64,000 bases of DNA, from IMG/VR virus record IMGVR_UViG_3300050821_009856, positions 1-64,000 of that record, one strand, 5' to 3'. This DNA comes from a virus. Position numbers and translations under genes: made by a program. Below, one piece after another: positions 7,280 to 33,803 of the stretch (positions within the stretch are counted from its first letter, which is position 1; each line of letters begins with the position of its first letter). Under the pieces are notes generated by a model. The model had not been told where the DNA came from. It ran no database searches and worked only from the letters and a program-made list of their open reading frames with translations.

Positions 7280-7607
7280 GGGTCACCATCTTGACAAGCT
7301 CTTCCGGGAGCAACGCGAACTTCGGCCCGTTCGAGATGGAGTAGTGGTACTCACTGCCGAACCAGGCCATCTTCGTCACGTCTGCCTCAACCCAAACGAC
7401 CATCCCCTGGTTGAATCGATCGTTCGGATAGGCCACCTTGAAAGAGACAAGAGCCTTTGCGCTAGCCGTCTTAAATCCAGTCCCCTGGGTCTGGATGGGC
7501 TTGTGTCCGACACTCTCTACCAAGACGGCCACGAAGTGCCCAGGGACGTAAAACTTGTCGTCCCGGTAAATCGTAAAATACCTCAGTGCACCCTCGTTGC
7601 CTTCCAT
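7272..7607 (-). CDS. Hypothetical protein, possibly divergent GroES-like co-chaperonin
   Basis: 111 aa, GGAGG RBS; pattern PGHFVAV..E / flexible loop / FKVAY..FNQGMVVWV / GSEY..GPKFALLPEELVKMV parallels Cpn10 topology. Confidence 0.45.
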   Translation of the reverse strand: MEGNEGALRYFTIYRDDKFYVPGHFVAVLVESVGHKPIQTQGTGFKTASAKALVSFKVAYPNDRFNQGMVVWVEADVTKMAWFGSEYHYSISNGPKFALLPEELVKMVTRE

Positions 7608-7626: not shown

Positions 7627-8727
7627 CTATAGCGAGATACCTCTCAGCCTCAGGAGCTTTCTCTCGATGATCGGCAACCCAGAGACAGCCTCCTGGAGCT
7701 TAAATGACATCTCGGCCTTCTCTACCCGGACATCAGGTCGGTTCTCCTCGGCATCCGGACACCGATCCAGGAAGTTGCCGCGATCCTCATCCTCCCCATG
7801 GGTCACAGGCGTAGAATCCGTAGGCCCCAGAGAAGAAGCCGCCGCCATCAGGTCGGAGATCTCCGAGGGATTCGTCCTGGCAGCAGACTCCACGAACCGA
7901 CCGCGGGCATCCTTGTTGACGCTATCGGCCAACTTCTGGAGGTCGATCACTTCGCCATGCTTCGCCAGGTACTTGTTGGCCCGATAGAGTTTCCTCTTGT
8001 CCTTCGGGTAGAAATGGATGCTGGTCTCACTGTAGGCCTCGATGAAGTTGCCGACCATGCGCTGGACGGCCATGGGTCGGAAGCGGCGGAACTCCCGCAA
8101 CAGAACCTCTGGAGCCTTGAACCTCTTCGGATCCGGGAGGACGAACTTGTCCGCTGCAGATACGAGGCCGTCGAGCCCGACCTGGACCAAATCCATGTAC
8201 GTCAGGTGCGTATGGGCCGCTCTGGCTGGGGCCAAGCTCCAGAACCGTCTGGCCTGGCTGATAGCTAAGGGCGTGTTCAGCACCACGATGTCCTGGCGTG
8301 CTGACTCGATTTGCCGAGACAAGCGAAGAAGTCTTGAACCGGGGCGCCAGCGGTAGAGCTTCATCGCCCAAGCAACGAAATTGTAGTTGAAGTGAAAGCC
8401 CTGGAGAACCTTCATGTCACCCGCGGCAAGGGCGTGACTGATGGGCCCGATACAGACGTCCTGTCGTTCCCGGAAGTAGGGTCGGCTGGTCAGGATGTTG
8501 CCGTTCTCTGTACAGATCTTCTTAAAGAAGGCCTTATAGACCCCCTTCCCCCAGGCATGCTTCAGGAGGACCTGTCGGAACTCCTCTTCCAGATTGTGGA
8601 CTGTCTCTAGCTGCTTCTTCTGAAGCTGCAGGAGCTGTCCGTCGTCGAGCTTGCCATACTTGGCAATGGCCGACTCCAATCGAGTGGCAAAAAGCCGAAA
8701 GTGTTCGTTGTCTACGTCGCCCATCAC
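7627..8727 (-). CDS. Sigma-70-family RNA polymerase sigma factor, C-terminally truncated (no region 4.2 HTH)
   Basis: Region 2-like NTPLAISQARRF, YMDLVQVGLDGLVSAADKF, FRPMAVQRMVG; ends at LSGLPIIERKLLRLRG-like region 4.1 (LQEAVSGLPIIERKLLRLRGISL*). Confidence 0.75.
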   Translation of the reverse strand: MMGDVDNEHFRLFATRLESAIAKYGKLDDGQLLQLQKKQLETVHNLEEEFRQVLLKHAWGKGVYKAFFKKICTENGNILTSRPYFRERQDVCIGPISHALAAGDMKVLQGFHFNYNFVAWAMKLYRWRPGSRLLRLSRQIESARQDIVVLNTPLAISQARRFWSLAPARAAHTHLTYMDLVQVGLDGLVSAADKFVLPDPKRFKAPEVLLREFRRFRPMAVQRMVGNFIEAYSETSIHFYPKDKRKLYRANKYLAKHGEVIDLQKLADSVNKDARGRFVESAARTNPSEISDLMAAASSLGPTDSTPVTHGEDEDRGNFLDRCPDAEENRPDVRVEKAEMSFKLQEAVSGLPIIERKLLRLRGISL

Positions 8728-8732
8728 GCCCC

Positions 8733-9059
8733 CTAGGTGAAACTCGCCCCGAGATCCGCCAGCATCTCTAGCACGTACTCGCCATACTCCGTCTTGGCGT
8801 CGATGTTGACAGCCATCAGACCCGGACCGGTAGCCAGCGTCTCGACCCCCACGTCAAAGTGAAGCTTCGGGCTCTGGACACGCTGACCTATACAGTCTGC
8901 AGGTCCAGCCGCCAGGACTTTGAAGAGCACGTCCCAAACAGCTGACTCGACCACCGACGTCGGTGGTTCCCTGTCGTTCTCAATCTGGTATCGGAGCAAC
9001 CGAGACCGAAACGCCGACATGGCATCAGCTACCACAGCTCCGAAGTCAACCTCTTCCAC
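8733..9059 (-). CDS. Hypothetical protein
   Basis: Fills gap between helicase and sigma; likely GTG start 9059 within track ORF 8733..9194. Confidence 0.5.
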   Translation of the reverse strand: MEEVDFGAVVADAMSAFRSRLLRYQIENDREPPTSVVESAVWDVLFKVLAAGPADCIGQRVQSPKLHFDVGVETLATGPGLMAVNIDAKTEYGEYVLEMLADLGASFT

Positions 9060-9082
9060 GCCACCCACGACCGCCCCCGTAT

Positions 9083-10564
9083 CTACCCGTCCGACTCCCG
9101 GACCTGAACAACCTGCTCGTAAATCTTCCGCCTCGCCAACGCATGCCGATGCAGAACCTCTATGTTCGAGACGTCCACATCGATGATCTGGCACTCCGCC
9201 TTGCCAACCAGCTCGTGCTTCCTGGTACTACGACCGATAGCGCCCTGCATGACTTCAATCTCTGACTTGCCGCCGCGGAGATAGACCGTTGCCTTGTTAG
9301 CCTTGATGTCCGTTCCGGTAGCGATGCAGCTGGTCCCAACGAGAATCGGTAGCCTCCCGTCATTGAAGCGTTCGACCAGCTTGTCCGGATCTGACTTCTG
9401 GTACTCTAGAGGCAGAACATCCGACCCCGCTCCACCGCTGTGAGCGAAGCCAGCCTCGTGCCGAAGCATCGGGAGGAGCCTAGCAAACTGCTCTAGCTCT
9501 TCGACCAAGACCAGGACCTGGTAGCCGCAGAGCTTCACCAGCCGGTTGATAGTCATGGCTACGACCTGACAAACGTGCTGGTCGTAGAACAGGTGAGCCC
9601 TGGTCATCTCATTCGGGTCTCTGCCGCTAAAGCCCGAAGTAGATTCTACACTCAGCATTGTGACATTCAAACGAGCCAGGTAGCCCTGATCGATACCCTC
9701 CTTGACGGTCATCTTGGAGACGACCGGACCGGTGATGGCATCGAGCAGCAGGTCAAGTCCGTCATTCCGTAGCTGGGTACCAGAGAAGAAGTACCGGAAG
9801 GGGCTGGCCTTCATCATGCCAAAGCAAACCTTCTGCAGGGTGGTTGCCGGGCAGAGGTGGCTTTCGTCAGCAATAAATACTGGCGCTGCAGAAAAATACT
9901 CCCAAGCCTCCGAGCCAGGCTCAATTCTGGTTAGACTCTGGGCCGTAGCTACAGTCACCAGCTTGTTGATGTCATGCCTTCCATCGCCGTAACGACCAAC
10001 GACACGACGACCGAGGTCGTGTGCCATCGTGTCGTAGATCTGCTTAGCAATAGAAGTAGAGGGGGCCATGACAACAGCCCTGAGGCCAAGCTTTCTCACC
10101 AGGTAACGGATGATGAGTGTCTTACCCAATCCAGTACCTATTTCGACAGCAGAGTGCTCATTTGCTAGAAGCTCTGCCAGAGCTTTCTCCTGGTAGGGAT
10201 AAGGCTTCAGCGGATCCAACGCCCAGGGGAGGCTTTCTGCTGTAGGGTACTCGACGTCAGACTCGAATGGCGTACCGGGGAATGCATTCTGAATGTGTCT
10301 TTGCAAGCCTGTGTAGGTCCGGAACCCCTTCTCGTCTTTGAACAGGAGAGATTTGAAGCGACTTGCTTTCAATTCAGCCAGGCGTTCATCGTATGCTTCC
10401 TGGCCATACTTCTGAATGAACCAACCGGCATGCTTGAACTTCTGCAGCTCATAGTCTACTCGTTTGTCGTGATACTGCAGGTGTGCTGCCAGCATTACAG
10501 CTTCACTGCCAGGATTAACGCCGAGAATCCTCAGCTCGGTAGGGGAGACGGCATGCAGCTTCAT
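9083..10564 (-). CDS. Superfamily 2 DNA helicase (UvsW/XPB-like)
   Basis: PYPYQ, GTGLGKT, DESH, FSGT, TGTDI, QGAIGRSTR. Confidence 0.88.
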   Translation of the reverse strand: MKLHAVSPTELRILGVNPGSEAVMLAAHLQYHDKRVDYELQKFKHAGWFIQKYGQEAYDERLAELKASRFKSLLFKDEKGFRTYTGLQRHIQNAFPGTPFESDVEYPTAESLPWALDPLKPYPYQEKALAELLANEHSAVEIGTGLGKTLIIRYLVRKLGLRAVVMAPSTSIAKQIYDTMAHDLGRRVVGRYGDGRHDINKLVTVATAQSLTRIEPGSEAWEYFSAAPVFIADESHLCPATTLQKVCFGMMKASPFRYFFSGTQLRNDGLDLLLDAITGPVVSKMTVKEGIDQGYLARLNVTMLSVESTSGFSGRDPNEMTRAHLFYDQHVCQVVAMTINRLVKLCGYQVLVLVEELEQFARLLPMLRHEAGFAHSGGAGSDVLPLEYQKSDPDKLVERFNDGRLPILVGTSCIATGTDIKANKATVYLRGGKSEIEVMQGAIGRSTRKHELVGKAECQIIDVDVSNIEVLHRHALARRKIYEQVVQVRESDG

Positions 10565-11163
10565 GGCAGCATGAATGGAAGCTGCGGCAACCCTACAGGA
10601 TGCAGTAGCAACTGGAAGATGTACGACAGGGCTTGATCGGTTCTGTGCTTGCTGTCACCTGCCAAAGGCAGGTACCCCAACCAGGGGGCTTGTTCACTCA
10701 TGAGTGTTGGAAGCTTTTCGTCAATTTCATGGCTTTCTTTCATGCCATGGATACGGTTCGGGTCATCTCCAAAGCTAGGGAGAACCGTATGGACGTAGAA
10801 AGTCAAAGGCATGTGCTCTCGATGCACTTCGATTGCCTTCTGTACTGAAGCCTCTTTCCTCGCTGAAGGAGACATGTACAGCAAGCTGTTCAGGGGAGAG
10901 CTGTCTGTAACGATGACGACGTCAGGACCGCAGGCTGCCAGCATCATACTTTCAAGCTCAAGCTGCTTCCGCATGATGAGGATTTGGTCCAAATCCGTCA
11001 GGTGAACTGGAGCTTTGTAGACGGCACGACGCTCAGCAATGTACAGACGTGCCTGTTCAGGCAGAAACTCCGTGGCAACACCTCCATCCTTGAGGGCGGA
11101 GAACACCAGGGCAGCACAGGCGGTCTTGCCTGAGCATGGAGATCCGATGAAATTCACTAGCAT
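10561..11163 (-). CDS. P-loop kinase/ATPase (NadR/AAA_28-like)
   Basis: NFIGSPCSGKT, EQAR, IVTDSSPL, DPNRIH. Confidence 0.75.
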   Translation of the reverse strand: MLVNFIGSPCSGKTACAALVFSALKDGGVATEFLPEQARLYIAERRAVYKAPVHLTDLDQILIMRKQLELESMMLAACGPDVVIVTDSSPLNSLLYMSPSARKEASVQKAIEVHREHMPLTFYVHTVLPSFGDDPNRIHGMKESHEIDEKLPTLMSEQAPWLGYLPLAGDSKHRTDQALSYIFQLLLHPVGLPQLPFMLP

Positions 11164-11575
11164 GCCTATGACTATAGCGAGCGGATCTGGGGAGCGTAGC
11201 GACTGGCGCAGTTGTCTCAGGTTGGCAATCCTGGCAGTTCGGTGTAGCCAAGAGCATCGTCTTGTACGGATTGGCAGCGCTACCGTGTCCCGGTGTTTGC
11301 AATTTTGCTAGGGACCTCCGCGGTGGTTCAGAAGCGGCTTCGTAGAGATTTTCTAGCGGCTTCTCATGAGTCCCTGTAGCGGTCAATAATACATCCTGTA
11401 TTAGTCGCTATCGCTCCAAGAAAAATACTATAGTAATGCTAGCAGTTCATGCCAGCCCACCGCGGTGGCTCCCGCGGGGACTCAGAAGCGGCTCTATAGC
11501 GGCTATTGAGCGGACATCGAGCTTTTGGTGGGTCCATGTCCGCTCAAGGATTTTCTGACGCTATCGTTTCTTGGC
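11164..11575. other. Divergent intergenic region with short repeats and AT-rich core; candidate replication origin/regulatory hub
   Basis: CAGAAGCGGCT x2, TAGCGGCT x2, CCGCGGTGG x2 flanking an AT-rich core with AATACA-TCC-TGTATT and TACTATAGTA inverted repeats; strand-switch point. Confidence 0.4.
11171..11179 (-). promoter_or_regulatory. CGCTATAGT -10-type motif
   Basis: 7 nt before ATG 11163. Confidence 0.55.
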
Positions 11576-11773
11576 ATGGAGATCCTCGAATTACTGAAGC
11601 TGAATCCACACGTCACAGACAAGACAATCGCTGCAGCAACTGGCAAATCGGATCGCCAGATCCGGAGATACCTAAGGGGACTTGTCCAGACCGGCGCTAT
11701 CGTCTGTAGGACCAGGAAGGTCAAGTTGCAAGGCTGGTCTAACCAGCGAACCGTTGAGATCCAGGAGCGTTGA
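11576..11773 (+). CDS. Small winged-helix DNA-binding protein
   Basis: EILELLKLNPHVTDKTIAAATGKSDRQIRRYLRGLVQTGAI; leaderless start after CGCTATCGT. Confidence 0.7.
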   Translation: MEILELLKLNPHVTDKTIAAATGKSDRQIRRYLRGLVQTGAIVCRTRKVKLQGWSNQRTVEIQER

Positions 11774-13635
11774 TGTCCCTCTCGTATCGGAAGGTGAAGT
11801 CGGTAGGTAAGTTCGTCCTCACGCGTCAAGATGGTGGTCGGTTGGAAGCGGTGGTCAACAAGACCATGAAGACGCTCCGGAACATCGTCGGTGGAACCTT
11901 GGGACCTGGTGGACAGCCAGTTCTCATCGAGCGTCAGGAAGACAACATGCCGCCGATCGTCACGAAGGACGGGGTCACCGTCTTCCGGCACATGGGCTTT
12001 GAGGACCCGACCGCGGAGGTGGTACTTGAGGCCGCCCGGGATGCGGCGATCCGGACCGCGACTGAAGCTGGAGACGGTACCACAACGGCTACAGTTCTCT
12101 CTGAGGCCATTGTCCGGCTGACCAAGGAGTTCTGCGCCAAGCACCGAGATCAGAGCCCCCAGAAGGTTGTGCGGAGCCTACAGACAGCCTTTCAGTCCAT
12201 CATCGAACCGACCCTGAAGAGCCTGGCCATGCAAGCCTCAATGGAGACTGAAGAGGGCAAGGGCCTTCTGTACAACGTGGCACGCATCAGTTCTAACGGG
12301 GACACAGACCTGGCGAAAGCGGTCATGAAGTGCTTTGACATCGTCGGCGATGGCGGGAACGTCACAATCGCCGAGGTCAGTGGTCCCTACGGGTACGAGG
12401 TCGAACAGGTTGACGGGTATCCGATTCCCAACATGGGTTTCGAGGACTCGCTCGGGAAGTACGCCCCCGGCTTCATCACCGACCAAGCGGGTCAGCGCGT
12501 GTGGTTGGACAATCCGTTCTTCGTCGTCTTCCACGGGAAAATCACTGAGGTCCAGTCAATGCGTATTCTCATGGAGAAAATCTATGAGAACTGGCAGAAC
12601 CCTGGGGCCGGTTACCGGCGACACAATGTTGTCATTGTGGCCACTGGTTTCAGCGATTCCGTCGTGGGCCAGATGTACGTCAACATGACGGACCAGGGGA
12701 CCATCAACGTGGTCCCATTGACGGCTCCGCTGAGCCCCGTCCCGGGTGGCCAGCTGGCTCTCCTGGAGGATATCTGTGCCTTCACCGGTGCCAAACTCCT
12801 TGACCCGTTGTCGAACCCCCTGGACACGGCCAACTTGGAGGACTGTGGGACCTACGCGAAAGGGTTCGAGATGACCAGGTTCCGGACCACCATTTTCCCG
12901 ATGGATCCACAGCCGGTCATTGACCAGAACGGCAACGTTCTGACGACCGACCGCGGTGAGACCGTGTACGGTGACATGCCGAATGCTCTGACTGTCGGAG
13001 CCCGCATCGACATCCTGGAGCAGCACGCCAAGGACGCCATCTCTGGATTGGATGCCAGTATCGTCCAGGAGCGGATCGGCAAGCTGACCGGTGGCATCGC
13101 TCGCCTGAAGGTCGTTGGCTCCTCTTCTGGTGAGAACCGGGAGCGTCGCGACCGAGCCGAGGATGCTGTTTGTGCCGTTCGTGGGACCATCAAATACGGC
13201 TGCCTCCCTGGTGGAGGATGGGGACTACTGCGTGCCGCTGGTTCGCTCACTGGACCGGATCCAGACCCTGTGTACACGGACGTTTTGAGGCCAGCTCTCC
13301 TGGAGCCCGTGCACATGCTCTTTGACAACTGCGGGTTCACGAAGGAGGATTCTGGCAAGGCCATTGACGTCTTGGCTCATCAGCCCGAGCAGATCTTCGA
13401 CTTGCTGGAGATGAAGATGGTCGATGCCAAGACGGGTGGCCTCTTCGATAGCCTGCCTGCTGTTCTGGAGGCCATCCGGAACTCTCTATCGATTGCTTCT
13501 TTGCTTGGAACTCTGGGCGGGACAATCGTCTTCAATCGAGACTCTGACCTGGAGCGTTCGGAGGCCAAAGAGACGCGGAGCTTCCTTCGAGACGCTAATG
13601 AGGTACAGGACTATGTAAATGAACGGCCTCTCTGA
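11773..13635 (+). CDS. groEL: Phage chaperonin, GroEL/Cpn60-like
   Basis: TLGPGG, TKDGVTV, AGDGTTTATVL, ERIGKLTGGIA, PGGG motifs; about 620 aa. Confidence 0.93.
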   Translation: MSLSYRKVKSVGKFVLTRQDGGRLEAVVNKTMKTLRNIVGGTLGPGGQPVLIERQEDNMPPIVTKDGVTVFRHMGFEDPTAEVVLEAARDAAIRTATEAGDGTTTATVLSEAIVRLTKEFCAKHRDQSPQKVVRSLQTAFQSIIEPTLKSLAMQASMETEEGKGLLYNVARISSNGDTDLAKAVMKCFDIVGDGGNVTIAEVSGPYGYEVEQVDGYPIPNMGFEDSLGKYAPGFITDQAGQRVWLDNPFFVVFHGKITEVQSMRILMEKIYENWQNPGAGYRRHNVVIVATGFSDSVVGQMYVNMTDQGTINVVPLTAPLSPVPGGQLALLEDICAFTGAKLLDPLSNPLDTANLEDCGTYAKGFEMTRFRTTIFPMDPQPVIDQNGNVLTTDRGETVYGDMPNALTVGARIDILEQHAKDAISGLDASIVQERIGKLTGGIARLKVVGSSSGENRERRDRAEDAVCAVRGTIKYGCLPGGGWGLLRAAGSLTGPDPDPVYTDVLRPALLEPVHMLFDNCGFTKEDSGKAIDVLAHQPEQIFDLLEMKMVDAKTGGLFDSLPAVLEAIRNSLSIASLLGTLGGTIVFNRDSDLERSEAKETRSFLRDANEVQDYVNERPL

Positions 13636-13716
13636 TGCCTAGGAGTAATAAGGCAGGCAGAGCTGCGTACATGAGAAAATGGAGGCACGCCTTGCCTCCC
13701 GAAAAGAAAGGATGAT

Positions 13717-14073
13717 GTGATGATCAAGTTGAACGTGAGGGAGCGGACATACCGAGGGAATGGCATATGCGAGGCACTTAGTGACCTCCTCTACAATTCC
13801 CCGTACAGCAACGTTCCTGTTGAACTTCGAGTCGGCGACAGGGCCCTTCGTTTGATGCCCACCCGGTACGATATGCGACCCACTTATCGCAACTACGATT
13901 ACTGCCTCCCTGAGTACAATTTCGACATGGAGTTTCAGTGCGTCGGCGACATCAGGGTCGTCAAACCTGATCCCAAAATCGCTGAGCTTGAGCAGAGCCT
14001 GAAGCTCGTTGAGGCTCAACGAGACGCCAACGCTGCTCGGGTCAAGGACCTTGAAGCGAGGTTCGAGAAGTAG
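13717..14073 (+). CDS. Hypothetical protein with shared C-terminal coiled-coil tag
   Basis: 118 aa; last 30 aa nearly identical to those of 44124..44576. Confidence 0.65.
   Translation: MMIKLNVRERTYRGNGICEALSDLLYNSPYSNVPVELRVGDRALRLMPTRYDMRPTYRNYDYCLPEYNFDMEFQCVGDIRVVKPDPKIAELEQSLKLVEAQRDANAARVKDLEARFEK
13981..14070 (+). repeat. Dispersed 90-bp coding repeat, copy 1 (copy 2 at 44481..44570)
   Basis: Direct comparison: 29 of 30 codons encode the same residue. Confidence 0.9.
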
Positions 14074-14358
14074 ATGCCGGTCTACTACTTCAAGTGCCCG
14101 GACGGTGGGTGCCTCGGGACGGGCCGAAGTCGCATTACGAAAAGCGCGATGATGGCCGGCGCTCGACTCGAACCTATGGTTTGTATCGTTTGTGGTAAGA
14201 CGATGGTGCGGGCACCTAAGCCGGCAACCTCCAACGTAGTAGAGACCCTGGACAACGGAGTCATGTCTCGTCGTATTGAGCGTCCCGCCGACGCTGAGCG
14301 CTTGTTCAAAGAACGGGCTGCCGCGGACCAGGACCGAATCAACAACCCGAAGCTGTAG
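14074..14358 (+). CDS. FmdB-like zinc-ribbon protein
   Basis: MPVYYFKCPDGGC...CIVCGKTMVR. Confidence 0.65.
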   Translation: MPVYYFKCPDGGCLGTGRSRITKSAMMAGARLEPMVCIVCGKTMVRAPKPATSNVVETLDNGVMSRRIERPADAERLFKERAAADQDRINNPKL

Positions 14359-14359
14359 C

Positions 14360-14368
14360 CGCTATACT
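14360..14368 (+). promoter_or_regulatory. CGCTATACT -10-type motif, leaderless sbcC
   Basis: 7 nt before ATG 14376, no SD. Confidence 0.55.
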
Positions 14369-14375
14369 ACCAGCG

Positions 14376-16499
14376 ATGGGTGTCGTTCGTCTCGTTTCCC
14401 TGCTGATGGAGAACTTCCGGTCGCATCGGAAGTCCTTTGTCGTGTTTCCTAAGACCGGTATGATGCTGGTCCGTGGCTTTAACCGGGACACAGGTGGAAG
14501 TTCCTACGCCGGTAAGTCGTCGATCGGCTTAGCCATCGCCTACGTCAACGAGGCCGGTATGCCGTTCTCTGCCAAGGACCAGAAGTCGTGGTATGCCGAC
14601 GGCGGCATGGTCGTCGAAGAGGTTCTAGAGACTGACGCCGGATTGTACACGGTTCGCCGCGGTGCCCAGTACACTGTGACTAGGCCAGATGGATCGAAGG
14701 CCTCTGGGTCGGCCGCCGTCCAGGCTGAACTCCAGAAGGTCTTCGGGGCCCCCACAGACATGCTGGCGCCGTTGATTTACAAGCCCCAGGGCAAGGCTGG
14801 CAGGTACCTCTGGATGGAGCCCGCCCATAAGCGTGACTTCTTGGCACGGGTCCTGGGGATCCAGCAACTGGAAGAGTTGGCGGCTGAATCTCAAAAGAAA
14901 ATCAGTGGGTTGGAAAACGAGTACCAGGCATCGCGGTTCAGGCTCGTAACCGCGGAGAACCGGGTCCGTGATCTGTCAAGCCGTTTGACACTAGAGACGG
15001 TAGACGTCCAGCTGCTTGAGGAGCGGGTTACCGCGGGCGCCTTACAGCTGGCGGCCGCCGTCGATGCGACGAAGACCCTGGAGGGCCTGGAGTCGTCTTA
15101 CAGGGAGAAGCGAGAACAGGTGGCCGCCGAGATTGCTGTCCCATTCCGTGGCCGCCTATCCGTGGTGGAGGCAGAACGCCGAGCCATCATCGGTGCAGGT
15201 CCGGAACTGTATGCGGCACTGGAGTCGGGCGAGGAGCGTCTGGCAAAGCTCGTAGCTCAGGATAGGGAGGCCACCGCAGCTGTTGCCACTGCGCGTGCTG
15301 TCCTATCATCTCAGATCGGCAGCCTCCAAGTTGAGGTTCGGCAGGAAGATCGGCTGAATACAGAACGGGACAAAATTCTTGACGAATTAGAGGTCCTGAA
15401 GACAGAGGCTTGCCCTACCTGTGAACGACCAGGTTGGAAGAACAGTGGCGCCAGATCCGTAGAACTCTCGACCCGCCTCGCTCAAATCCTTGGGACAGAA
15501 TTGGTCGGTATCGACCTGAAGAAGGCCTTGCTTGATGAGGCGCAGCGGCGACTGACGCAAACAATCCATGTTCGCGATTCAAGGATAGATATTTTCCAGC
15601 AAGCTGTCGCGAATATAAAACAACAGATCGATGCACGACATAAGGCAGAGAAACAGAGGCAGTTCTCCCTTGCCGATGAGGCGGACAAGATTCAAGCGGA
15701 GTGTGCTCGGGCCGTCTCGAATCAACTCCGAGAGTTCGACGCCGATGCTGCAGCGGCAGGGAAGAAGCTGAAGGAAGCTCGGGAGCGTCTGTTCTTGGCT
15801 AGAACGGCGCATGCCGATGCCACCACGAACCTGAGGGTCACCAAGCAGGAGAACGACAGGCGGACGCAGGAATACGAGGACAGGAAGGGCGAGCTAGCTG
15901 TTGCCGAGAAGGCTCTGGAAGCTGCCCGAGAAGACCAGGCGGCTCGCCAGCAAGCTGTCAGCGCCGAGCGTGACTTCGTGGCGATGATCCGCAGCTTCTT
16001 GACGGCCATCTTTGACGAAGTCCTGGTGGCCATCAGCGATCGTGCCAACGCCATCCTCGGGGCCGTGGCAAACACGGCACATGTTAGCATTCGGTTCTTC
16101 ACGGAAGCAGTTAACAGCAAGGGCGAAGCGCGTCAGCAAATCACTACTGCTTGCACCATCAGTGGATTTCCTGCAGACCTGGAGTCAGGGAACAGCGGCG
16201 GTATGTTCTCGTCTGTCGACCTCGCTGTCGATCGGGCCCTCGCAGAAATCATCAGCGAGCGATCCAACTGCCGGCCCGGTTGGGTCTTCCTCGATGAAGC
16301 TTGGGAAGGCATGGATGCCGTCACCAAGGAATCCTGTATGGAGGTCCTCCAGAAGCAGGCTCAAGATAAGTTGATCCTGGTCGTTGACCACGGCAGCGAA
16401 ACAAAGGAACTCTTTACCAGCTTTCTGGATGTGGAGTTCAAGAACGGCATTTCTACAGTTCAAACGAAGGAGGCACCAGGTGCAGCTCAAAGCGTCTGA
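14376..16499 (+). CDS. sbcC: SbcC/Rad50-like (gp46-like) SMC ATPase
   Basis: ENFRSH, GKSS, long coiled coil with CPTC hook, SGG signature, FLDEA, VVDH. Confidence 0.88.
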   Translation: MGVVRLVSLLMENFRSHRKSFVVFPKTGMMLVRGFNRDTGGSSYAGKSSIGLAIAYVNEAGMPFSAKDQKSWYADGGMVVEEVLETDAGLYTVRRGAQYTVTRPDGSKASGSAAVQAELQKVFGAPTDMLAPLIYKPQGKAGRYLWMEPAHKRDFLARVLGIQQLEELAAESQKKISGLENEYQASRFRLVTAENRVRDLSSRLTLETVDVQLLEERVTAGALQLAAAVDATKTLEGLESSYREKREQVAAEIAVPFRGRLSVVEAERRAIIGAGPELYAALESGEERLAKLVAQDREATAAVATARAVLSSQIGSLQVEVRQEDRLNTERDKILDELEVLKTEACPTCERPGWKNSGARSVELSTRLAQILGTELVGIDLKKALLDEAQRRLTQTIHVRDSRIDIFQQAVANIKQQIDARHKAEKQRQFSLADEADKIQAECARAVSNQLREFDADAAAAGKKLKEARERLFLARTAHADATTNLRVTKQENDRRTQEYEDRKGELAVAEKALEAAREDQAARQQAVSAERDFVAMIRSFLTAIFDEVLVAISDRANAILGAVANTAHVSIRFFTEAVNSKGEARQQITTACTISGFPADLESGNSGGMFSSVDLAVDRALAEIISERSNCRPGWVFLDEAWEGMDAVTKESCMEVLQKQAQDKLILVVDHGSETKELFTSFLDVEFKNGISTVQTKEAPGAAQSV

Positions 16500-16767
16500 C
16501 GTCCTCGATGTCATCTCGATAGCCAGAAAATTCTTCATCGAATTACCTGCCGCGGCTCAGTTGCCGCAGATGACGAGACGGCTTGATGAAGCAGAGCGCC
16601 GAGCCTTGGCTTTTTTTCAGGGTTCTCTGAACTTGATGAATCGCCGCGGCCTGCTCAGGTCTGACCTGAAGCCAGGCGATCTGGATCTAGAATACGAGAT
16701 CGCCGACAGTCAGGTTGTCTCTGCTGAGTACGAAACTGAAGCGTCGACCCCCGCCAAGTCGCTATAG
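16480..16767 (+). CDS. Hypothetical protein
   Basis: GTG 16480 with AAGGAGG RBS, in frame with track ORF 16384..16767. Confidence 0.6.
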   Translation: MQLKASDVLDVISIARKFFIELPAAAQLPQMTRRLDEAERRALAFFQGSLNLMNRRGLLRSDLKPGDLDLEYEIADSQVVSAEYETEASTPAKSL

Positions 16768-16787
16768 TAGGCGGCAAGGAGACTTCA

Positions 16788-17378
16788 ATGGGACGACCGA
16801 AGGGCAGCAAGAACAAGGTGCAGCACGCTCCGAAGGACAAGATCGAGTACTGGAAGGCCGAAGAGCCCGAGGTGCTCGGGAAGGATTTGATTTCCAAGTT
16901 CCACACCCATCTTGCCACAGCGAAGATGTGCTACCTCTTCCGGACCAAGGCTCGGTCGAAGGGCACCAAGGTTGTTCTCGGTACGGCCGGTCGTCTCAGC
17001 GACAAGATCAAGGCACTTGCCGACTTTGACTTCATCATCGAGATCGGCTACGACGAGTGGCGCAATTTGAATGTCACGCAGAAGCAGGCCCTCGTTGACC
17101 ACGAGCTGTGCCACTGTGGCGGTGAGGAGGATCCGCAGACGGGCGGGATGAAGTGGGGGCTTCTTCAGCATGACCTCGAAGAGTTTCGGGAAATCGTCGG
17201 CCGCTACGGCTTTTGGAAGACCGATATCAAGGACTTCGTCCAATCGGTGAAGAAGGATCCAGAGGCTGTCGCTCCCATCAACACGCACACGGAAGCTCTG
17301 GAGCGGCACACCAAGCTCGCCGAGGAAACGCACTCGCGAGTGGACGCCCTGGTTGACGAAGCTGCTGCTGCGGCGTAG
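16788..17378 (+). CDS. Putative phage metallopeptidase with N-terminal AT-hook-like motif
   Basis: LVDHELCH (HExxH), HDLEEF; N-terminus GRPKGSKNK. Confidence 0.7.
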   Translation: MGRPKGSKNKVQHAPKDKIEYWKAEEPEVLGKDLISKFHTHLATAKMCYLFRTKARSKGTKVVLGTAGRLSDKIKALADFDFIIEIGYDEWRNLNVTQKQALVDHELCHCGGEEDPQTGGMKWGLLQHDLEEFREIVGRYGFWKTDIKDFVQSVKKDPEAVAPINTHTEALERHTKLAEETHSRVDALVDEAAAAA

Positions 17379-17414
17379 TATTGCCCTGTAGTCAACTCAA
17401 CCAAGGAGCCTCAG

Positions 17415-17708
17415 ATGTCCGAGAAGAAAGAGTACACGCCAGGCGGTAAGTCCAAATACGCTCACCGGAAGGCTCGGCGGGCCAATGGGGGCTCGCCTGC
17501 CAGTCGTGAGCAGATGCCCTGGTACTACCTCACGGTGACCCAGGACTTTGCTCAGCGTGAGCGTGATCAGGAGAAGGTCCGGGCGGCCGGGAAGAAGCTC
17601 AGCGCCAATCCGTTGCGTCCGTGGGGCGCCGAGCCCGAGCGTCGGTTGACGGAGCAAGAGTTGGCCATCATCGAGATGGAGGAGACCCAGGTCGCTGCGG
17701 CTGCGTAG
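17415..17708 (+). CDS. Hypothetical protein
   Basis: AAGGAG RBS, 97 aa. Confidence 0.65.
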   Translation: MSEKKEYTPGGKSKYAHRKARRANGGSPASREQMPWYYLTVTQDFAQRERDQEKVRAAGKKLSANPLRPWGAEPERRLTEQELAIIEMEETQVAAAA

Positions 17709-17743
17709 GAATCTTCGGTCAGGGCGGCGGGTCGGTTGGGGAG

Positions 17744-18058
17744 ATGATCAAGGTTCCATCTGCAGCGACATTGAGGAAGTACGGCTTGACCGATGTGACC
17801 TGGCTGGCGATTCTTGCCAGCCAGGGTAATGTCTGTCCGATCTGCAACAAGGTCCCGACTACTGGTCGGTTCGTGACAGACCACTACCACGTTAAGGGAT
17901 TCAAAGACCTTCCATTTGAAGAGAAGGCTCAGTGGGTCAGGGGCGTGACTTGCTGGTGGTGCAATAGCGTTTTCCTGGGTCGCGGCGTTACCATCGAGAA
18001 GGCCCAGGCTGTGGTAGACTACCTCAAGGCGTTCAAGGCCCGTATGGAGAAGCAATGA
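17744..18058 (+). CDS. Endonuclease VII-family (Holliday junction resolvase-like)
   Basis: KYGLT, QGNVCPIC, VTDHYH, VRGVTCWWCN. Confidence 0.8.
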   Translation: MIKVPSAATLRKYGLTDVTWLAILASQGNVCPICNKVPTTGRFVTDHYHVKGFKDLPFEEKAQWVRGVTCWWCNSVFLGRGVTIEKAQAVVDYLKAFKARMEKQ

Positions 18059-20046
18059 ATCCGGCGCAAGAGTTCATCTTTGTTGGGAAGTACGCTCGAT
18101 GGGTGGACGCACACAAGCGCAGGGAGAATTACGAAGAAGCGGTAGATCGGTACTTTGGTTTCTTCGAGAAGAAGTTCGGTGACAAGGTGCCGAAGAAGGT
18201 CTTTACCCTCTGTCGACACCAGGTCATGACGATGGGGGCCATGCCCTCAATGCGGGCTTTTTGGACGGCTGGACCTGCTCTGGAGCAGAACAACATCTGC
18301 GGCTACAACTGCTGCTCCATGGTCATCAAGGATCTGCAGTCCTTCGCTGAACTATTCTTCATCCTGATGTGCGGCACTGGCCCAGGATTCAGCGTTGAGG
18401 CCCAGTTTACGGACGATCTGCCGGCAGTGAAGCCCTTCACCGGTACTAGTGTCGGGACACATGTGGTCGGTGACAACAAAGAGGGCTGGGCCACCTCTTT
18501 GCGTGTCGGTATGGAAGCCTGGTTCGACGGTAAGGACATCGAGTTTGATTACAGTCTGGTCGAGAAGGGGCACCCTCGCGGATCTAGACTGAAAACGATG
18601 GGCGGACGGGCCAGCGGTCCGGAACCTCTGAAGCGCCTCCACGCCGTTGTCCGGGATATCGTTCTGGGAGCTGCTGGGCGAAAGCTGCGAAGCGATGAGA
18701 ATCTGGATATCTGCAACCACATCGGGGCAGTGACAGAGGTCGGTGGCATTCGTCGTGCCGCGGAGATTAGCTTTTCGGATCTGAATGACGACCTGATGAG
18801 GCATGCGAAGGACGCCCCGATCCCGCCCCATCGGTGGCAGTCCAACAACTCGGCTGTGTATTTGGGCCGTCCCGACATGATTACGTTTCTGCGTGAGTGG
18901 ACGGCCCTCGCAGCATCTGGCACGGGCGAACGGGGGATCTTCAACCTGAAGGCTGCCCAAGAATCCTGCTTACGTCGTGCCGTGGACAAGCTCGGTATGA
19001 CTTGGGAGGAGTTCAGCAAGTACCTGCGAACGAACCCATGTGGCGAGATTCTCTTGATGGCACTGCTTGGAGAATTCTGCAATCTCACGGAGGTTGTCAT
19101 CCGTGCCGACGACACATTTGCGGATCTGGTGGAGAAGGTTAAGTCGGCAGTCTGGATGGGTGCCATGCAGGCGTGCCTAACCGACTTCCCATTCATTCGC
19201 CCGAGCTTCAAGGCCTGCTGCGATGAAGAGATGTTGCTCGGAGTCAGCTTAACCGGGCAGATGGACAACCCGAAGCTCCTGACAGCCGAACGCCTCCAGG
19301 ACTTGAAGGAGGTTGCCATCCGAGAGTGTCGGAAGGCCTGCAAGGCACTCGGGCGTAACATGTCGGCTGCGATTACCACCGGCAAGCCCAGCGGAACCGT
19401 CAGCCAGCTCGTAAACTGTGCTTCTGGATGCCACCCGCGGTACGCGAAGTTCTATTGGCGGCGGTATCGGCTGAACAGTGTGGATCCACTCTTCCGGATG
19501 CTCCGTGACCAGGGGCTCAAGTTCACGCCAGAAAACGGTCAGGGCCCCGAGGCCGTGGAAGCTCGTCGGAAAGCTCTCATCACCAAGGGGCGCTCTTCCG
19601 AGGAAGCGGCAGTCTTGGTGCCCGATTGGTCTGAGGACCAGGTCATGACCTGGGTGTGTGCCTTCCCGGAGGCCGCGCCGGCCAAGGCCATCACACGAGA
19701 CCAGATGTCGGCGATCGACCAGCTGGAGTGGTACCTGAAGATCAAGAAGAACTGGTGTGAACATAACCAGAGTGTCACAATCTATATAAAGCCAGACGAA
19801 TGGTTGAAAGTGGGTACGTGGGTGTGGGAGCATTTTGACGAGATCTGCGGAGTGAGCTTCCTACCGTACGATGGGGGGAGTTACGAACAGGCCCCCTATC
19901 AAGAAATTACAAAAGAGCAGTATGAAAGGGCGGTTAAGGCCTTCCCGAAGATTGATTACAGCCAGCTGTACCTTTATGAAGAGGACGACAATACGACTGG
20001 AGCAAAACAGGTAGCCTGTGGTGCTGGGGGGTGTGAGAGCAGGTGA
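18055..20046 (+). CDS. nrdJ: Class II (adenosylcobalamin-dependent) ribonucleotide reductase
   Basis: MPSMR, YNC, GGRASGPEPL, TNPCGEI, FCNLTE, KPSGTVSQL, C-terminal CGAGGC. Confidence 0.9.
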   Translation: MNPAQEFIFVGKYARWVDAHKRRENYEEAVDRYFGFFEKKFGDKVPKKVFTLCRHQVMTMGAMPSMRAFWTAGPALEQNNICGYNCCSMVIKDLQSFAELFFILMCGTGPGFSVEAQFTDDLPAVKPFTGTSVGTHVVGDNKEGWATSLRVGMEAWFDGKDIEFDYSLVEKGHPRGSRLKTMGGRASGPEPLKRLHAVVRDIVLGAAGRKLRSDENLDICNHIGAVTEVGGIRRAAEISFSDLNDDLMRHAKDAPIPPHRWQSNNSAVYLGRPDMITFLREWTALAASGTGERGIFNLKAAQESCLRRAVDKLGMTWEEFSKYLRTNPCGEILLMALLGEFCNLTEVVIRADDTFADLVEKVKSAVWMGAMQACLTDFPFIRPSFKACCDEEMLLGVSLTGQMDNPKLLTAERLQDLKEVAIRECRKACKALGRNMSAAITTGKPSGTVSQLVNCASGCHPRYAKFYWRRYRLNSVDPLFRMLRDQGLKFTPENGQGPEAVEARRKALITKGRSSEEAAVLVPDWSEDQVMTWVCAFPEAAPAKAITRDQMSAIDQLEWYLKIKKNWCEHNQSVTIYIKPDEWLKVGTWVWEHFDEICGVSFLPYDGGSYEQAPYQEITKEQYERAVKAFPKIDYSQLYLYEEDDNTTGAKQVACGAGGCESR

Positions 20047-20568
20047 TAGAACTCGAAGGAAAGAAGTTTGGTCGGTTGGTGGTCCTGAAATTCTTGGGTC
20101 GTAGTTACGGGACTCCGTGCTGGCTCTGTCGGTGTGAATGTGGCAAAACTAAATCGATAAAGTCCTCTCATTTGCTTGCTGGAGCCACAAAAAGTTGTGG
20201 CTGTTTGAATAGAGATGCAATCGCAGCCAGATGGATGCCGCATAGACAGAATACACTTTTTCGTTGCGTGATCCACGGATATAAAACGGGGGCAACGCGC
20301 AGGGGGGCTGGTGTGGGGACTTTCATTTGAAGATTGCTTTAAACTGATGTCCTCTCCGTGCCATTATTGTGGTGCGCCTCCATCGCAGAGTAGAAGTAAG
20401 TGGCCTGACATCTTCTACATGGGAATAGATCGTAAGGACAATGCTGAAGGGTACACAGCAGAAAATGTTTTGCCGTGTTGTGTTATTTGTAATAAGGCAA
20501 AGCTGACCATGCCCTATTCTGGGTTCAAGGAGTGGATCTCGAAGGTTTATCGGCATCTGGCGCTATAG
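20043..20568 (+). pseudogene. HNH-type homing endonuclease interrupted by +1 frameshift
   Basis: N-half GKKFGRLVVL, WLCRCECG, TKSCGC; C-half PCHYCG, GIDRKDN, ENVLPCCVICNKAK; deleting one G from the G6 run at 20302-20307 fuses them; AT-rich. Confidence 0.75.
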
Positions 20569-20569
20569 T
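20561..20569 (+). promoter_or_regulatory. CGCTATAGT -10-type motif
   Basis: 8 nt before ATG 20578, no SD. Confidence 0.55.
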
Positions 20570-20577
20570 CTGCCTGA

Positions 20578-21606
20578 ATGCCTGGTTACTTTGACGATGA
20601 TGAGCCGCAGTCTCTAGCCGAACAGGGCTACGACGAAGATCCGCAGCCGCAATCTCAACGACCAGCTATCCGTCGTCCGCGGCCAGACCAGCAGGAAGAG
20701 TACTTCGAGGAACAGGCGCCACAGCAGATGGAGACAGTCAGCATCAACACCGAAGAGGTCGAAGAGGATTACCAGGAAGTGGTATCCCATGTCGACCGTC
20801 GGCTCCGGATCGCCCAGTACTACCGCATGGTCTTGGATGGGTCGCTTTTTAACGACGACACTCCTGAGTCGAAAATCGTCCAGAATCGGATCCGAAAGTT
20901 CGTCAGAGATGAGATAGAGGTCCTCTTCGGCATGAAGGTGGCCCCTACCGCGGCAGCTGTGGACTTGCCTTTCAGCGCCGAAGAAATCGACGCCCTGAAG
21001 GCCCTGGCTCAGGCCACGGTCGCAGCTAAGCGTAGGGCCGTCGAGCCGAAGCTCAACCGTATTGCCCAGTCGCCACCGGCTCAACAGGCAGCTCCCGTGC
21101 CGGCCCTGAAGCCCATCCAGGCGCCTCCACAGCAGGCGCGGCCTGTGGCGTCACCCCAGCCCCATCCGCAGGTGGACCGAGTAGATCGAGCCCAGAAGCC
21201 TCGTCCACCTCAGCCTCAACAGAAGCCGGTTCCACCGGCCCAGCCCGGAGTCCTCCAAAGCAACGTGAAGCCCGGGGACCCGTCACTGGTGGGTGACCCA
21301 CGTGTGCCCGAAGACTATCGCCAGGACCCTACGATTCGGATCAAGAATGGCCATGTATACGTTCAGCAAAGAGACCCCAATGGGGAACTTCTCTGGGTCC
21401 ATGAGACCGGCATGGCGCGGGCGATGCCTCTCCTCAAGGATGTGACGCCGGTCGCCAAACCTACGGGGCCGATTCAGCCTCTACCGATGCCGTCCATCGA
21501 CATGATGCCCATGCTCACAGAGCAACGAGCGTCCACAGAGGCCGTGGAGAATCTGGAACGTATCGCCATCAAGCTTGATCCTGTCTTTAGGGGCAAAATC
21601 TTTTAA
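20578..21606 (+). CDS. Hypothetical protein, Pro/Gln-rich linker
   Basis: 342 aa; leaderless after CGCTATAGT. Confidence 0.7.
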   Translation: MPGYFDDDEPQSLAEQGYDEDPQPQSQRPAIRRPRPDQQEEYFEEQAPQQMETVSINTEEVEEDYQEVVSHVDRRLRIAQYYRMVLDGSLFNDDTPESKIVQNRIRKFVRDEIEVLFGMKVAPTAAAVDLPFSAEEIDALKALAQATVAAKRRAVEPKLNRIAQSPPAQQAAPVPALKPIQAPPQQARPVASPQPHPQVDRVDRAQKPRPPQPQQKPVPPAQPGVLQSNVKPGDPSLVGDPRVPEDYRQDPTIRIKNGHVYVQQRDPNGELLWVHETGMARAMPLLKDVTPVAKPTGPIQPLPMPSIDMMPMLTEQRASTEAVENLERIAIKLDPVFRGKIF

Positions 21607-21627
21607 CCCAAACAAAGGAGTACCGCA

Positions 21628-22311
21628 GTGAATCCCACCGTACCGCAGCAGACCAGTGCACGCCAGGGCGCCAAGGACGCGTTCAGTCGCCTGACCGCCC
21701 TTGAGAAGCGACTGGCAGATCAGGAGCAGACTTCCACCCGAGTTCTGATGGCCGTTAACCAGGCATTCGGTAGCCTCGGAAAGGCTGTTGACGACCAGGC
21801 AGAAACTGTCGAGGCCATCGTTTCTCTGACCGGACCCGACCAGGTTGCCCAGGTCATCGCTGAGCTGCGGGCCACCAAGCTTCGCCAGCAGGCCGAAACC
21901 ACCAAGGCTCAGATTTCCTTGGCTCTGACTGAAGGGAAGCTCTTGAAGGCTGAGGTCATTGGGGAGAACTCCCTGGTTGTTGGCCGAGAGGTCAACAAGG
22001 ATGGTGCCGAGCTTCCTCCTGGATACGCCGCCGCTCGTGTCAGTGCGCTGCCGCCCGACAACAAGGAGCGAGTGATGGGCCACAAGGTTGGTGATGTTGT
22101 CGAGACGAAGGAGGGTGGAAAGTTCACCGTCCAAGAGGTCTATGACTACGCACCGCCCAAGCCTGCCGAGACTCCGGCGGCCCCGCCGCCTGCGGCTGAG
22201 CCCCAGGTTGCTGCATCGCCCGCGCCGGTGGAGCCTACGCCCGAGCAGGTCCCTCAACCCGAGCCGACGCCTGTTGCTGAAACCTCCGTCGCCGCTCCGG
22301 CGCAGGCGTAA
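21628..22311 (+). CDS. Hypothetical coiled-coil protein with possible GreA/FKBP-like C-terminal domain
   Basis: AAGGAG RBS; RVMGHKVGDVVETKEGGKFTVQEV motif; Pro-rich tail. Confidence 0.55.
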   Translation: MNPTVPQQTSARQGAKDAFSRLTALEKRLADQEQTSTRVLMAVNQAFGSLGKAVDDQAETVEAIVSLTGPDQVAQVIAELRATKLRQQAETTKAQISLALTEGKLLKAEVIGENSLVVGREVNKDGAELPPGYAAARVSALPPDNKERVMGHKVGDVVETKEGGKFTVQEVYDYAPPKPAETPAAPPPAAEPQVAASPAPVEPTPEQVPQPEPTPVAETSVAAPAQA

Positions 22312-22314
22312 CGT

Positions 22315-23121
22315 ATGACCGCCAAACGTAGCACCGAGAAGCGTCCCGTTGTCGTAACACTCGACATCGAGACGGCCCCGCTTGAGGTCTACGTCTGGCG
22401 GATCTGGGAAGAGAATGTCGGCATCGACCAAATCAAAAAGGACTGGTGCATCCTCTCTTTCGCCTACAAGTTTCTGGACGAGAAGAAGGTGTACTTCCAT
22501 TGCACTGGTGGCCGCGGGCCCGACAAGGTTCGAGACGACAAGAAGCTTGTAGAACTGCTCTGGGAGATCCTGGACAAAGCCGACGTGGTCGTCCTTCAAA
22601 ACGGGAAGGCATTCGACATCAAGAAGATCAACGCCCGGATGGCCATGTATGGGATGAAGCCGTACTCGCCCATCAAGGTCATTGACACGATGCTTATTGC
22701 CAAGAAGCAGTTTGGGTTCACCAGTAACAAGCTGGAGTTCTTGGCACGCATCTTGACCGACACTGGGAAGTCGAAGCACAAGAAGTTCCCCGGCTTCGAA
22801 CTCTGGGAGGAGTGCCTGAAGGACAACCCGGAGGCTTGGATCGAGATGGAGAAATACAACAAGATCGACGTCGTGGCTGACGAGAAGGTCTACCTGCGGC
22901 TGCGTCCTTGGGTCGAGGGGCATCCAAACTTCGGTGTCTACTCCTCTACGGAAGAGGTGACGTGTCCGAAGTGTGGCAGCACACATCTACAGAAGCGCGG
23001 TAGCTCCTACACTCAGGTCGGTGAGTATCACAGGTTTCAGTGCCTGGACTGCCATGGCTGGGCCCGGAGCCGTTACGTCACCAACACCAAAGAGAAGCGT
23101 AAGGCGCTCCTTAGTAACTGA
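22315..23121 (+). CDS. RNase H-fold 3'-5' exonuclease (YprB/DnaQ-like) with C-terminal zinc ribbon
   Basis: LDIETAP, QNGKAFD, YNKIDV, CPKCGS..CLDC. Confidence 0.82.
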   Translation: MTAKRSTEKRPVVVTLDIETAPLEVYVWRIWEENVGIDQIKKDWCILSFAYKFLDEKKVYFHCTGGRGPDKVRDDKKLVELLWEILDKADVVVLQNGKAFDIKKINARMAMYGMKPYSPIKVIDTMLIAKKQFGFTSNKLEFLARILTDTGKSKHKKFPGFELWEECLKDNPEAWIEMEKYNKIDVVADEKVYLRLRPWVEGHPNFGVYSSTEEVTCPKCGSTHLQKRGSSYTQVGEYHRFQCLDCHGWARSRYVTNTKEKRKALLSN

Positions 23122-23124
23122 ACC

Positions 23125-23343
23125 ATGACGGTCGAGGAGATTCGGCATCGACTCAGTACGGACGAAGACTTCATTCCCCTGAAGCGCTTCGACTATTCGA
23201 TGCGGTGTCTGTTGGACCGATATCCCGATGGAGTCCCAGATCGGATCATCGCTCAGAGCTTGTTGATTGATGATGAGCAGGTCGAGGTTCTCTACCAGGA
23301 AGTTGTGGCCAAACTTCGGACCAACATGAAGGTGGAGACGTGA
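23125..23343 (+). CDS. Small HTH protein resembling sigma-70 region 4
   Basis: DGVPDRIIAQSLLIDDEQVEVLYQEVVAKLR matches the region-4 pattern G...IA..L.I....V.......KLR. Confidence 0.55.
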   Translation: MTVEEIRHRLSTDEDFIPLKRFDYSMRCLLDRYPDGVPDRIIAQSLLIDDEQVEVLYQEVVAKLRTNMKVET

Positions 23344-23531
23344 TCGCCAAAAAATCGCCACCGTGTCAGCACCTAGAGCTTCACTTTGAGCGTGGTGGCT
23401 TGTACGTCGTTTGCAGCAACAAAGAGTGTGGCGACATGTGGCGATCCGTCTTGAAACCCATGGGGATCGTTGTTAATCCGGCTGCCAGGTCTCAAGGATT
23501 GACCAACCTAGACGTGCGTCAGAAGCCTTAA
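23340..23531 (+). CDS. Small Cys-containing hypothetical protein
   Basis: GGAG RBS, overlapping start; CQH..CSNKEC. Confidence 0.55.
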   Translation: MIAKKSPPCQHLELHFERGGLYVVCSNKECGDMWRSVLKPMGIVVNPAARSQGLTNLDVRQKP

Positions 23532-33746: not shown

Positions 33747-33803
33747 CGGGCCTCCGCCGCTATCGTGTCGTTGCAGGTGGTTACGGTGCTCATCTTCCAA
33801 CAG

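Follow-up and report, generated by a model that had tools for sequence, protein, structure and literature searches.

Does a small gene beside the replicase gene of a soil phage encode the missing end of a sigma factor whose own gene lies 15 kb away? The question is raised by a stretch of 64,000 nucleotides (hereafter the window), positions 1 to 64,000 of the IMG/VR virus record IMGVR_UViG_3300050821_009856. A preliminary description of the window, made from the sequence alone, had proposed that a sigma factor of 366 amino acids (aa), encoded at 7627..8727 on the minus strand, stops before the helix-turn-helix (HTH) of region 4.2. A 72-aa protein encoded at 23125..23343 on the plus strand, next to dnaE, was proposed as the other half of a two-part phage sigma factor. 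Both open reading frames (ORFs) were verified at these positions, with the sequences that had been quoted for them. The lack of region 4.2 in the sigma factor proves to be natural and is shared by at least 79 phage genomes; the small protein is conserved, acidic and weakly sigma4-like. A two-part sigma factor is the best explanation of the two genes, tentative as it is.

The window is part of an 86-kb record with an estimated completeness of 53%. Its sole relative among GenBank phages is Myxococcus phage Mx1 (169.6 kb), whose sigma factor is WNM70309. The same DNA is present in independent soil metagenomes from several studies, and none of the data sets listed for it is from RNA. The sigma factor is encoded on 102 IMG/VR stretches, from which 80 loci were kept, and the relatives that carry it form one clade with genomes of 155-182 kb. 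Nothing on the truncated sigma factor or the small protein is found in the Mx1 genome announcement (PMC10720576) or in the 2026 myxophage survey.

The sigma factor ends after region 4.1

The 366-aa protein is a sigma70-family factor with regions 1.2 to 4.1 and without the region 4.2 HTH. Pfam finds none of the Sigma70 families in it even at E <= 10, and the gathering scores for r2, r3 and r4 are not reached. A weak match to PHROG 351, "RNA polymerase sigma factor" (1.8e-5), is its single PHROG or Pfam match. The check with Pfam Sigma70 models that the preliminary description had suggested therefore fails for this ORF, and it fails for the small one as well. The family can be placed by more sensitive comparisons. 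An alignment of 40 family sequences, used as a profile against the PDB, matches region 2 of many RpoD and SigA chains (E ~3e-6), and it gives long alignments to cyanobacterial SigA (8h3v, 8gzg) that end about 50 residues before the SigA C-terminus. The AlphaFold2 (AF2) model has a mean predicted local distance difference test score (pLDDT) of 83, and its top Foldseek matches are the Thermus and E. coli primary sigma factors (sigmaA), at E 1e-5.

Structural alignment with VIA-align shows which regions are present. In many rows residues 1-366 of the model align with residues ~91/95-566 of the 613 residues of E. coli sigma70, at Z 11-12. Domain sigma2 (regions 1.2-2.4) is present, with Z 12.3 to sigma70 domain 2 and a root-mean-square deviation (rmsd) of 3.2 A over 182 aa. 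Also present are domain sigma3 and the 3.2 linker: model residues up to ~300-318 align to sigma70 504-524 in many rows, and the long profile alignments extend to the SigA chains 8h3v and 8gzg. The last helices fall on RpoD 515-562 in a local alignment of the family profile, within the region 4.1 stretch "..LAGLTAREAKVLRMR"; this alignment is not significant alone, and its register agrees with the structural one. The protein then ends in ...IIERKLLRLRGISL, followed by TAG, at a point equivalent to about residue 566 of sigma70, and domain sigma4 with the region 4.2 HTH is absent. Compared with sigmaS, M. tuberculosis SigB, M. smegmatis SigA and Caulobacter sigma73, the model ends about 46-49 residues short of the C-terminus. 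No signal for PF04545 or PF08281 is found anywhere in the record. The proposed stop after region 4.1 and before the region 4.2 HTH is thus borne out by the structural alignment, as well as by the homolog ends given below. The term "sigma2/3 gene" used earlier is correct for regions 2 and 3 and too narrow, since regions 1.2 and 4.1 are also held.

What is left of region 4.1 is well conserved. Few parts of the sigma factor are as well conserved as the motif ..ERKLLRLKG.., in which K357 never varies and L351, L359 and G363 hardly do. This conservation suggests that the residual motif still contacts some partner.

The truncation is a family trait

The truncation is almost certainly by design, because the homologs stop alike and independent assemblies agree. 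All 79 complete IMG/VR homologs stop 0-17 residues past the ..RKLLRLKG.. motif, and the 80th locus is cut by a contig end. The stop codon in the window is covered by contigs from three studies with zero differing letters. Among the 120 sigma-family proteins listed of 196, nearly all have 335-381 aa, at about 99% coverage. A sequencing error at the stop had been named earlier as one possible weak point of the proposal. Error and read-through are both excluded by the 79 homolog ends, by the independent contigs and by the ORF that follows, which lies in another frame and is not conserved.

This ORF of 111 aa (7272..7607, minus strand) is directly downstream of the sigma gene, and it was considered as the missing half. 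It has no Pfam match and no HTH signal, and no homolog of it is found beside the sigma gene in 20 relatives, so it was rejected as a partner. Two sigma homologs are far longer than the rest (P0121 with 589 aa and P0080 with 628 aa), and the 589-aa one carries the intein domain PF14890. Judged by this domain, the sigma gene can host an intein in some relatives.

The small protein is acidic and weakly sigma4-like

The 72-aa protein is a conserved four-helix protein, and it is probably a free-standing HTH of the sigma4/LuxR class with a novel N-terminal part. Its ORF has a coding-like pattern of GC content and stays in frame in all 20 relatives. In an exhaustive profile search the family comprises 383 representative clusters, nearly all of 65-110 aa. 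Some members are longer (131-218 aa); their extra N-terminal part has no Pfam domain and probably consists of gene-calling extensions. The AF2 model has a pLDDT of 93 and helices at 3-12, 26-32, 39-45 and 50-67, with the weakly sigma4/LuxR-like HTH at residues ~30-70.

Several methods point weakly to this class. Against the PDB, the family profile matches best the HTH of NarL (E 0.006), followed by the last TFIIB repeat, and region 4.2 of FliA and WhiG (E 0.1-0.4; 0.11 for FliA). In Pfam, a few members of the family weakly match HTH_69, Sigma70_r4, GerE and the PhyR sigma-like domain; PF04545 is matched by 4 of 69 members at E <= 1, with a best value of 0.034. About a quarter of the 50 VIA-align rows listed are sigma4 or sigma-like domains placed on residues 30-72. 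These residues align with sigma4 of extracytoplasmic function (ECF) factors, sigma32 and SigF at Z 2.3-3.1 (2.3-2.6 for the rows of SigL, SigW, SigH, SigK, sigma32 and SigF), with an rmsd of 2.1-3.6 A over 36-42 aa. Among the ESM Atlas clusters that bear a Pfam family, the nearest are small viral proteins of 74-79 aa in which 63-83% of the members have PF04545 (score 0.94, with 179-182 shared features).

The small protein resembles sigma4 (PF04545/PF08281) and the LuxR/GerE HTH in that its helices 2-4 superpose on the HTH of ECF factors, sigma32 and SigF, and it has the same hydrophobic pattern and a recognition helix that likewise ends in ..KLR. It differs in that it stays below every Pfam threshold, in that its recognition face is acidic where that of sigma4 is Arg-rich, and in that sigma4 has nothing equivalent to its first 30 residues, which include the conserved segment DPDFI..KRF.YS.

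The acidity is a property of the whole family. The mean net charge is -3.4, and 86% of the members are negative. In sigma70 the -35 box is read by R584, E585 and R588 of region 4.2 (PMC2613000). The start of the recognition helix in the small family (residues 50-54) has the consensus E-E-E-V-E versus R584-E585-R586-I587-R588 in sigma70, in an alignment register that is not statistically significant. The earlier remark that this helix is acidic and not Arg-rich thus holds family-wide. Because the recognition helix is acidic across the family, reading of the -35 box is not expected of the 72-aa protein, and it is very unlikely to read DNA at all.

Evidence for and against pairing

The sigma factor has lost region 4.2 throughout its family, and the small protein is the only sigma4-like candidate found in the record and in 5 complete relatives. 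None of these genomes has a Sigma70_r4 match above the Pfam cut-off. The small gene occurs in exactly one copy in 21 of the 24 sigma-bearing IMG/VR records, including all 15 of those that are at least 90% complete. In the reverse direction, a search with a degenerate DNA pattern gave 12 loci, three of which truly have the small gene (four counting one further locus). Two of the four hold the sigma gene, and the contigs of the other two start too near the small gene to reach the expected sigma position.

Co-folding gives weak support to direct contact. The whole sigma factor with the small protein scored 0.55 (runs of 0.47, 0.55 and 0.55) versus 0.01 for the best control. The runs share at least 59% of their contacts, and the pLDDT of the partner is at least 73. 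In the calibration, 58 of 80 solved complexes and 2 of 110 mismatched pairs attained the mark. The pass is a weak one because scores of 0.60 or less include only 7 of the 80 solved complexes, yet both of the passing mismatches.

A number of results weigh against a two-part sigma factor. Some of them concern the fold. The 72-aa protein itself has no Pfam match of any kind at E <= 10, so that Sigma70_r4 (PF04545) is not found in it, and Foldseek gives no match to its model at E <= 0.001. The best VIA-align score for the whole protein among 48,161 chains is Z 3.6, to a segment of the T4 portal, which was taken as chance. A helix equivalent to the second helix of region 4.1 is already present in the small protein, which for this reason is not simply a piece cut off the sigma factor, and its conserved N-terminal segment is unrelated to sigma4. 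Profile-profile comparison of the small family with the sigma family likewise shows no homology, including to the sigma C-terminus (probability 2.6%).

Other results of this kind concern the pair. A co-folding pass at 0.55 is more often wrong than right unless pairing is likely beforehand, the score may reflect the model's memory of intact sigma4 domains, and the co-folding output gives no interface. Co-occurrence is confined to one clade in which all core genes co-occur, and no phage was found with one gene and without the other, so the gene content offers no discriminating case. The two genes are 14-32 kb apart (15 kb here) and are never adjacent or fused in the genomes examined, and a fused form of about 440 aa is absent among the 120 sigma-family matches listed of 196. 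Rate covariation was calculated on a fixed tree with 14 genomes, 25 branches and 8 proteins. The sigma factor and the small protein have r 0.26, which ranks 8th of 28 pairs; the top pairs are the sigma factor with the GroEL-like protein and the small protein with the SbcC-like protein, presumably noise. Finally, the most stable linkage of the small gene is with dnaE.

Overall, there is an even chance, or slightly better, that the small protein acts on RNA polymerase in some way, and that it pairs directly with the 366-aa sigma factor is a serious possibility that falls somewhat short of this. The preliminary description is therefore upheld in part. The 72-aa ORF is real, conserved, acidic and weakly sigma4/LuxR-like, but it is not a clean complement of the sigma factor, and it has no homology to the sigma C-terminus. 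The two-part sigma factor has in its favor the family-wide loss of region 4.2 and a sole sigma4-like candidate, while the pairing itself has the weak co-folding pass of 0.55 behind it. Co-occurrence, which had been suggested as a check, is complete in the 15 near-complete genomes, but within one clade it does not discriminate.

Alternative explanations

The position of the small gene points to replication. It ends 250 bp before the start of dnaE, which encodes a DnaE-type DNA polymerase III alpha subunit (23593..27483, plus strand; Pfam DNA_pol3_alpha, PHP, finger and HHH_6), and the gap holds a 63-aa ORF with Cys and His residues (C..H, then C....C; 23340..23531, plus strand), which has a homolog in 1 of 20 relatives. 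Directly upstream is a 268-aa exonuclease of the RNase H fold (22315..23121, plus strand; Pfam RNase_H_2, 2.5e-9). The 72-aa ORF starts 3 nt past the exonuclease stop, and its own stop overlaps the GTG start of the 63-aa ORF. In all 20 relatives and in Mx1 the small gene is upstream of dnaE on the same strand. The distance is at most 552 bp in 13 of the 20 relatives and 1.4-3.4 kb in the other 7, which are the most distant relatives. Further upstream the gene content varies, and an exonuclease homolog is near the small gene in only 1 of 20. In Mx1 the homolog of the small protein (41% identity, E 3e-12) is encoded on the minus strand at 157473-157685 of OR576727.2, 25 bp upstream of dnaE. This Mx1 gene is without annotation in GenBank and overlaps the end of the upstream coding sequence by 44 nt.

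The strongest rival to a two-part sigma factor builds on this arrangement. The truncated sigma factor would act alone at promoters with only a -10-type box, and the 72-aa protein would be an unrelated accessory or regulator of the replisome, made together with DnaE, that uses an HTH-like fold for protein contact. The small gene keeps its place before dnaE in relatives with as little as 29% dnaE identity, despite the variable genes further upstream, and in the window it sits in a tight run of replication genes. In addition, initiation at extended -10 promoters is possible for E. coli sigma70 alone after loss of region 4.2 (PMC2613000). However, none of the Pfam replication families matches the 72-aa protein, DNA_pol3_theta included, and the neighboring exonuclease is not a constant companion. 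An identity as Pol III theta (HolE/HOT) was rejected for these two reasons. Rate covariation of the small protein with dnaE (r 0.15) is lower than with the sigma factor, both values being at noise level. The whole module is syntenic, which makes adjacency alone weak evidence for a role in replication, and the sigma4-like leads and the weak co-folding pass would have to be coincidence. This explanation is on balance unlikely, and it is the one that survives best among the alternatives.

The acidic face also allows the small protein to be seen as a decoy directed at the host. As a mimic of sigma4 it would shut off -35-dependent host transcription, either by sitting on the beta-flap tip or by binding a host factor whose normal contact is sigma4. 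In favor are its sigma4-like HTH, which is acidic on the face that carries R584, E585 and R588 in sigma70 (PMC2613000), and the apparent expression of its gene with the early or middle replication genes. T4 gp33 alone represses transcription by occupying the flap (PMC7892883). The weak co-folding signal is with the phage sigma factor itself, however, and a protein bound to the flap would serve the phage sigma factor too, so that a decoy overlaps with the two-part explanation. As a separate account it is rather improbable.

A different partner is less probable again. The 507-aa protein encoded at 32361..33884 on the minus strand is a candidate second, diverged sigma2-like factor, and pairing of the 72-aa protein with it and not with the 366-aa sigma factor would be a closer copy of T4 gp55/gp33. 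Among named Atlas clusters, those nearest to it are small viral Sigma70_r2 proteins (0.84-0.85), and its gene belongs to the replication module, at 9 kb from the small gene. Atlas scores under 0.9 such as these serve as leads only, and the 507-aa protein has no Pfam match and no PDB sequence match. An ordinary DNA-binding regulator of the LuxR/GerE type, or a true -35 reader for a split sigma factor, is highly improbable: the best PDB profile match is the DNA-binding HTH of NarL and some family members weakly match GerE and HTH_69, but the family is predominantly negative with E/E/E/V/E at the start of the recognition helix, and the 72-aa protein is without the fourth, dimerization helix that follows the HTH in LuxR-type proteins.

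Other features of the region

In 8 of the 20 relatives (L111, L116, L112, L115, L117, L119, L121 and L124) the matches to dnaE are split into two or three pieces. The dnaE gap in G013 (L111, 2852-7759) and in G008 (L116, 3078-7989) holds a homolog of an 85-aa ORF of the window (20311-20568). The split matches suggest that a mobile element, for example an intron, intein or homing-endonuclease cassette, has inserted into the replicase gene. Elsewhere in the window, an 82-aa winged-HTH protein (11525-11773, plus strand; HTH_24, 1.9e-4) is encoded by a gene that overlaps the start of the gene for a 621-aa GroEL-like chaperonin (11770-13635, plus strand; Cpn60_TCP1, 6e-33).

Proposed mechanism and promoters

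In a two-part sigma factor, the 366-aa protein would be the phage's own factor, which keeps regions 1.2, 2, 3 and 4.1 and has permanently lost region 4.2. Its most likely role would be to send the host RNA polymerase to those promoters of the phage in which a -10-type box stands alone, without a -35 box. The 72-aa protein would most likely be an acidic sigma4-like module that does not read DNA and that replaces the missing sigma4 half on the polymerase. It may dock on the two leftover 4.1 helices of the sigma factor, on the beta-flap tip, or on both. Binding of this kind, its site and the promoter type are inferred, whereas the truncation with its conservation, the acidity and probable fold class of the small protein and its occurrence in all near-complete relatives are results of the analysis. 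As a cofactor the small protein would be comparable to T4 gp33 with gp55; T4 gp33 clamps the flap tip in the place of sigma4 and does not bind DNA alone (PMC7892883).

Candidate promoters in the window are consistent with a single box. The hexamer AATCTT occurs in 29 copies versus about 16 expected. In the minus-strand structural block at 53.8-61.7 kb it is found 22-45 nt 5' of the start codon in all four intergenic gaps checked (53797, 54272, 57732 and 61654). A single-box promoter would fit a sigma factor without region 4.2. Several of the copies have the longer form YAATCTTCAG. AATCTT also occurs at 23530 on the plus strand, 58 nt before dnaE.

The preliminary description had further suggested that the pair couples late transcription to replication. 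The small gene is indeed kept upstream of dnaE, but the suggestion is drawn from gene order, and no DnaN-type clamp was found. PF00712 (DnaN) has no match in the record, nor in any of 4 complete relatives; a diverged clamp or the clamp of the host is possible. Coupling to replication through a clamp is improbable. A looser connection can be included in the proposal. In its most complete form, a new split sigma factor of Mx1-like soil phages has its break at the 4.1/4.2 boundary, an acidic, non-DNA-reading module attaches to the 4.1 helices and the beta-flap, and the gene of the module is kept near the replicase so that its supply tracks replication-gene expression. This complete form is possible and more doubtful than the two-part sigma factor as such.

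Comparison with known two-part sigma factors

The known two-part sigma factors are T4 gp55/gp33, SPO1 gp33/gp34, SigO-RsoA and Sig7-Sig8 of Tn916 (bioRxiv 10.64898/2026.10.01.756105). Two of them, T4 gp55/gp33 and Bacillus SigO-RsoA, had been named as precedents in the preliminary description.

SigO-RsoA of B. subtilis, Sig7-Sig8 and SPO1 gp33/gp34 are alike to the proposed pair in that sigma function is spread over two polypeptides on RNA polymerase. As the preprint describes these systems, the two proteins jointly supply regions 2 and 4, whereas here sigma2 is whole in one protein and the break is at 4.1/4.2. The pattern of SigO-RsoA and Sig7-Sig8 is not the one seen in the window, where the 366-aa protein has a complete sigma2 and the small protein is sigma4-like and not RsoA-like. 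Also unlike these systems, the two genes are 15 kb apart and the second piece is seemingly unable to read DNA.

The engineered E. coli sigma70 without region 4.2 (Kumar et al. 1993, in PMC2613000) has in effect the same truncation point, and it initiates without -35 contact. That form is a laboratory deletion, while the present one is natural and widely conserved. Even if the pairing proves false, a natural sigma factor without region 4.2 is a useful model for initiation without -35 contact. Mx1 on Myxococcus xanthus offers a culturable system in which the pairing is directly testable.

The logic of the proposed pair is probably closest to that of T4 gp55/gp33. Like the system of T4 gp55, gp33 and gp45 (PMC7892883, PMC2988020), it has a phage sigma factor without a domain that reads the -35 box, together with single-box promoters, which are putative here. 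The small protein is, like gp33, a small acidic helical protein, presumably without DNA binding, and it may sit at the sigma4 position. There are also differences. T4 gp55 is essentially sigma2 only, while the present sigma factor keeps regions 1.2, 3 and 4.1. T4 gp33 is structurally unrelated to sigma4 (PMC7892883), while the 72-aa protein weakly resembles it. In T4 the sliding clamp gp45 takes part, while the search of 4 complete relatives gave no sliding-clamp gene and a clamp-binding tail is not evident. If the pairing is true, it would explain how a large and widespread group of soil phages turns the host RNA polymerase to promoters without a -35 box. It would then be a fourth architecture beside T4 gp55/gp33, SPO1 gp33/gp34 and SigO-RsoA/Sig7-Sig8, and the first with its break inside domain 4.

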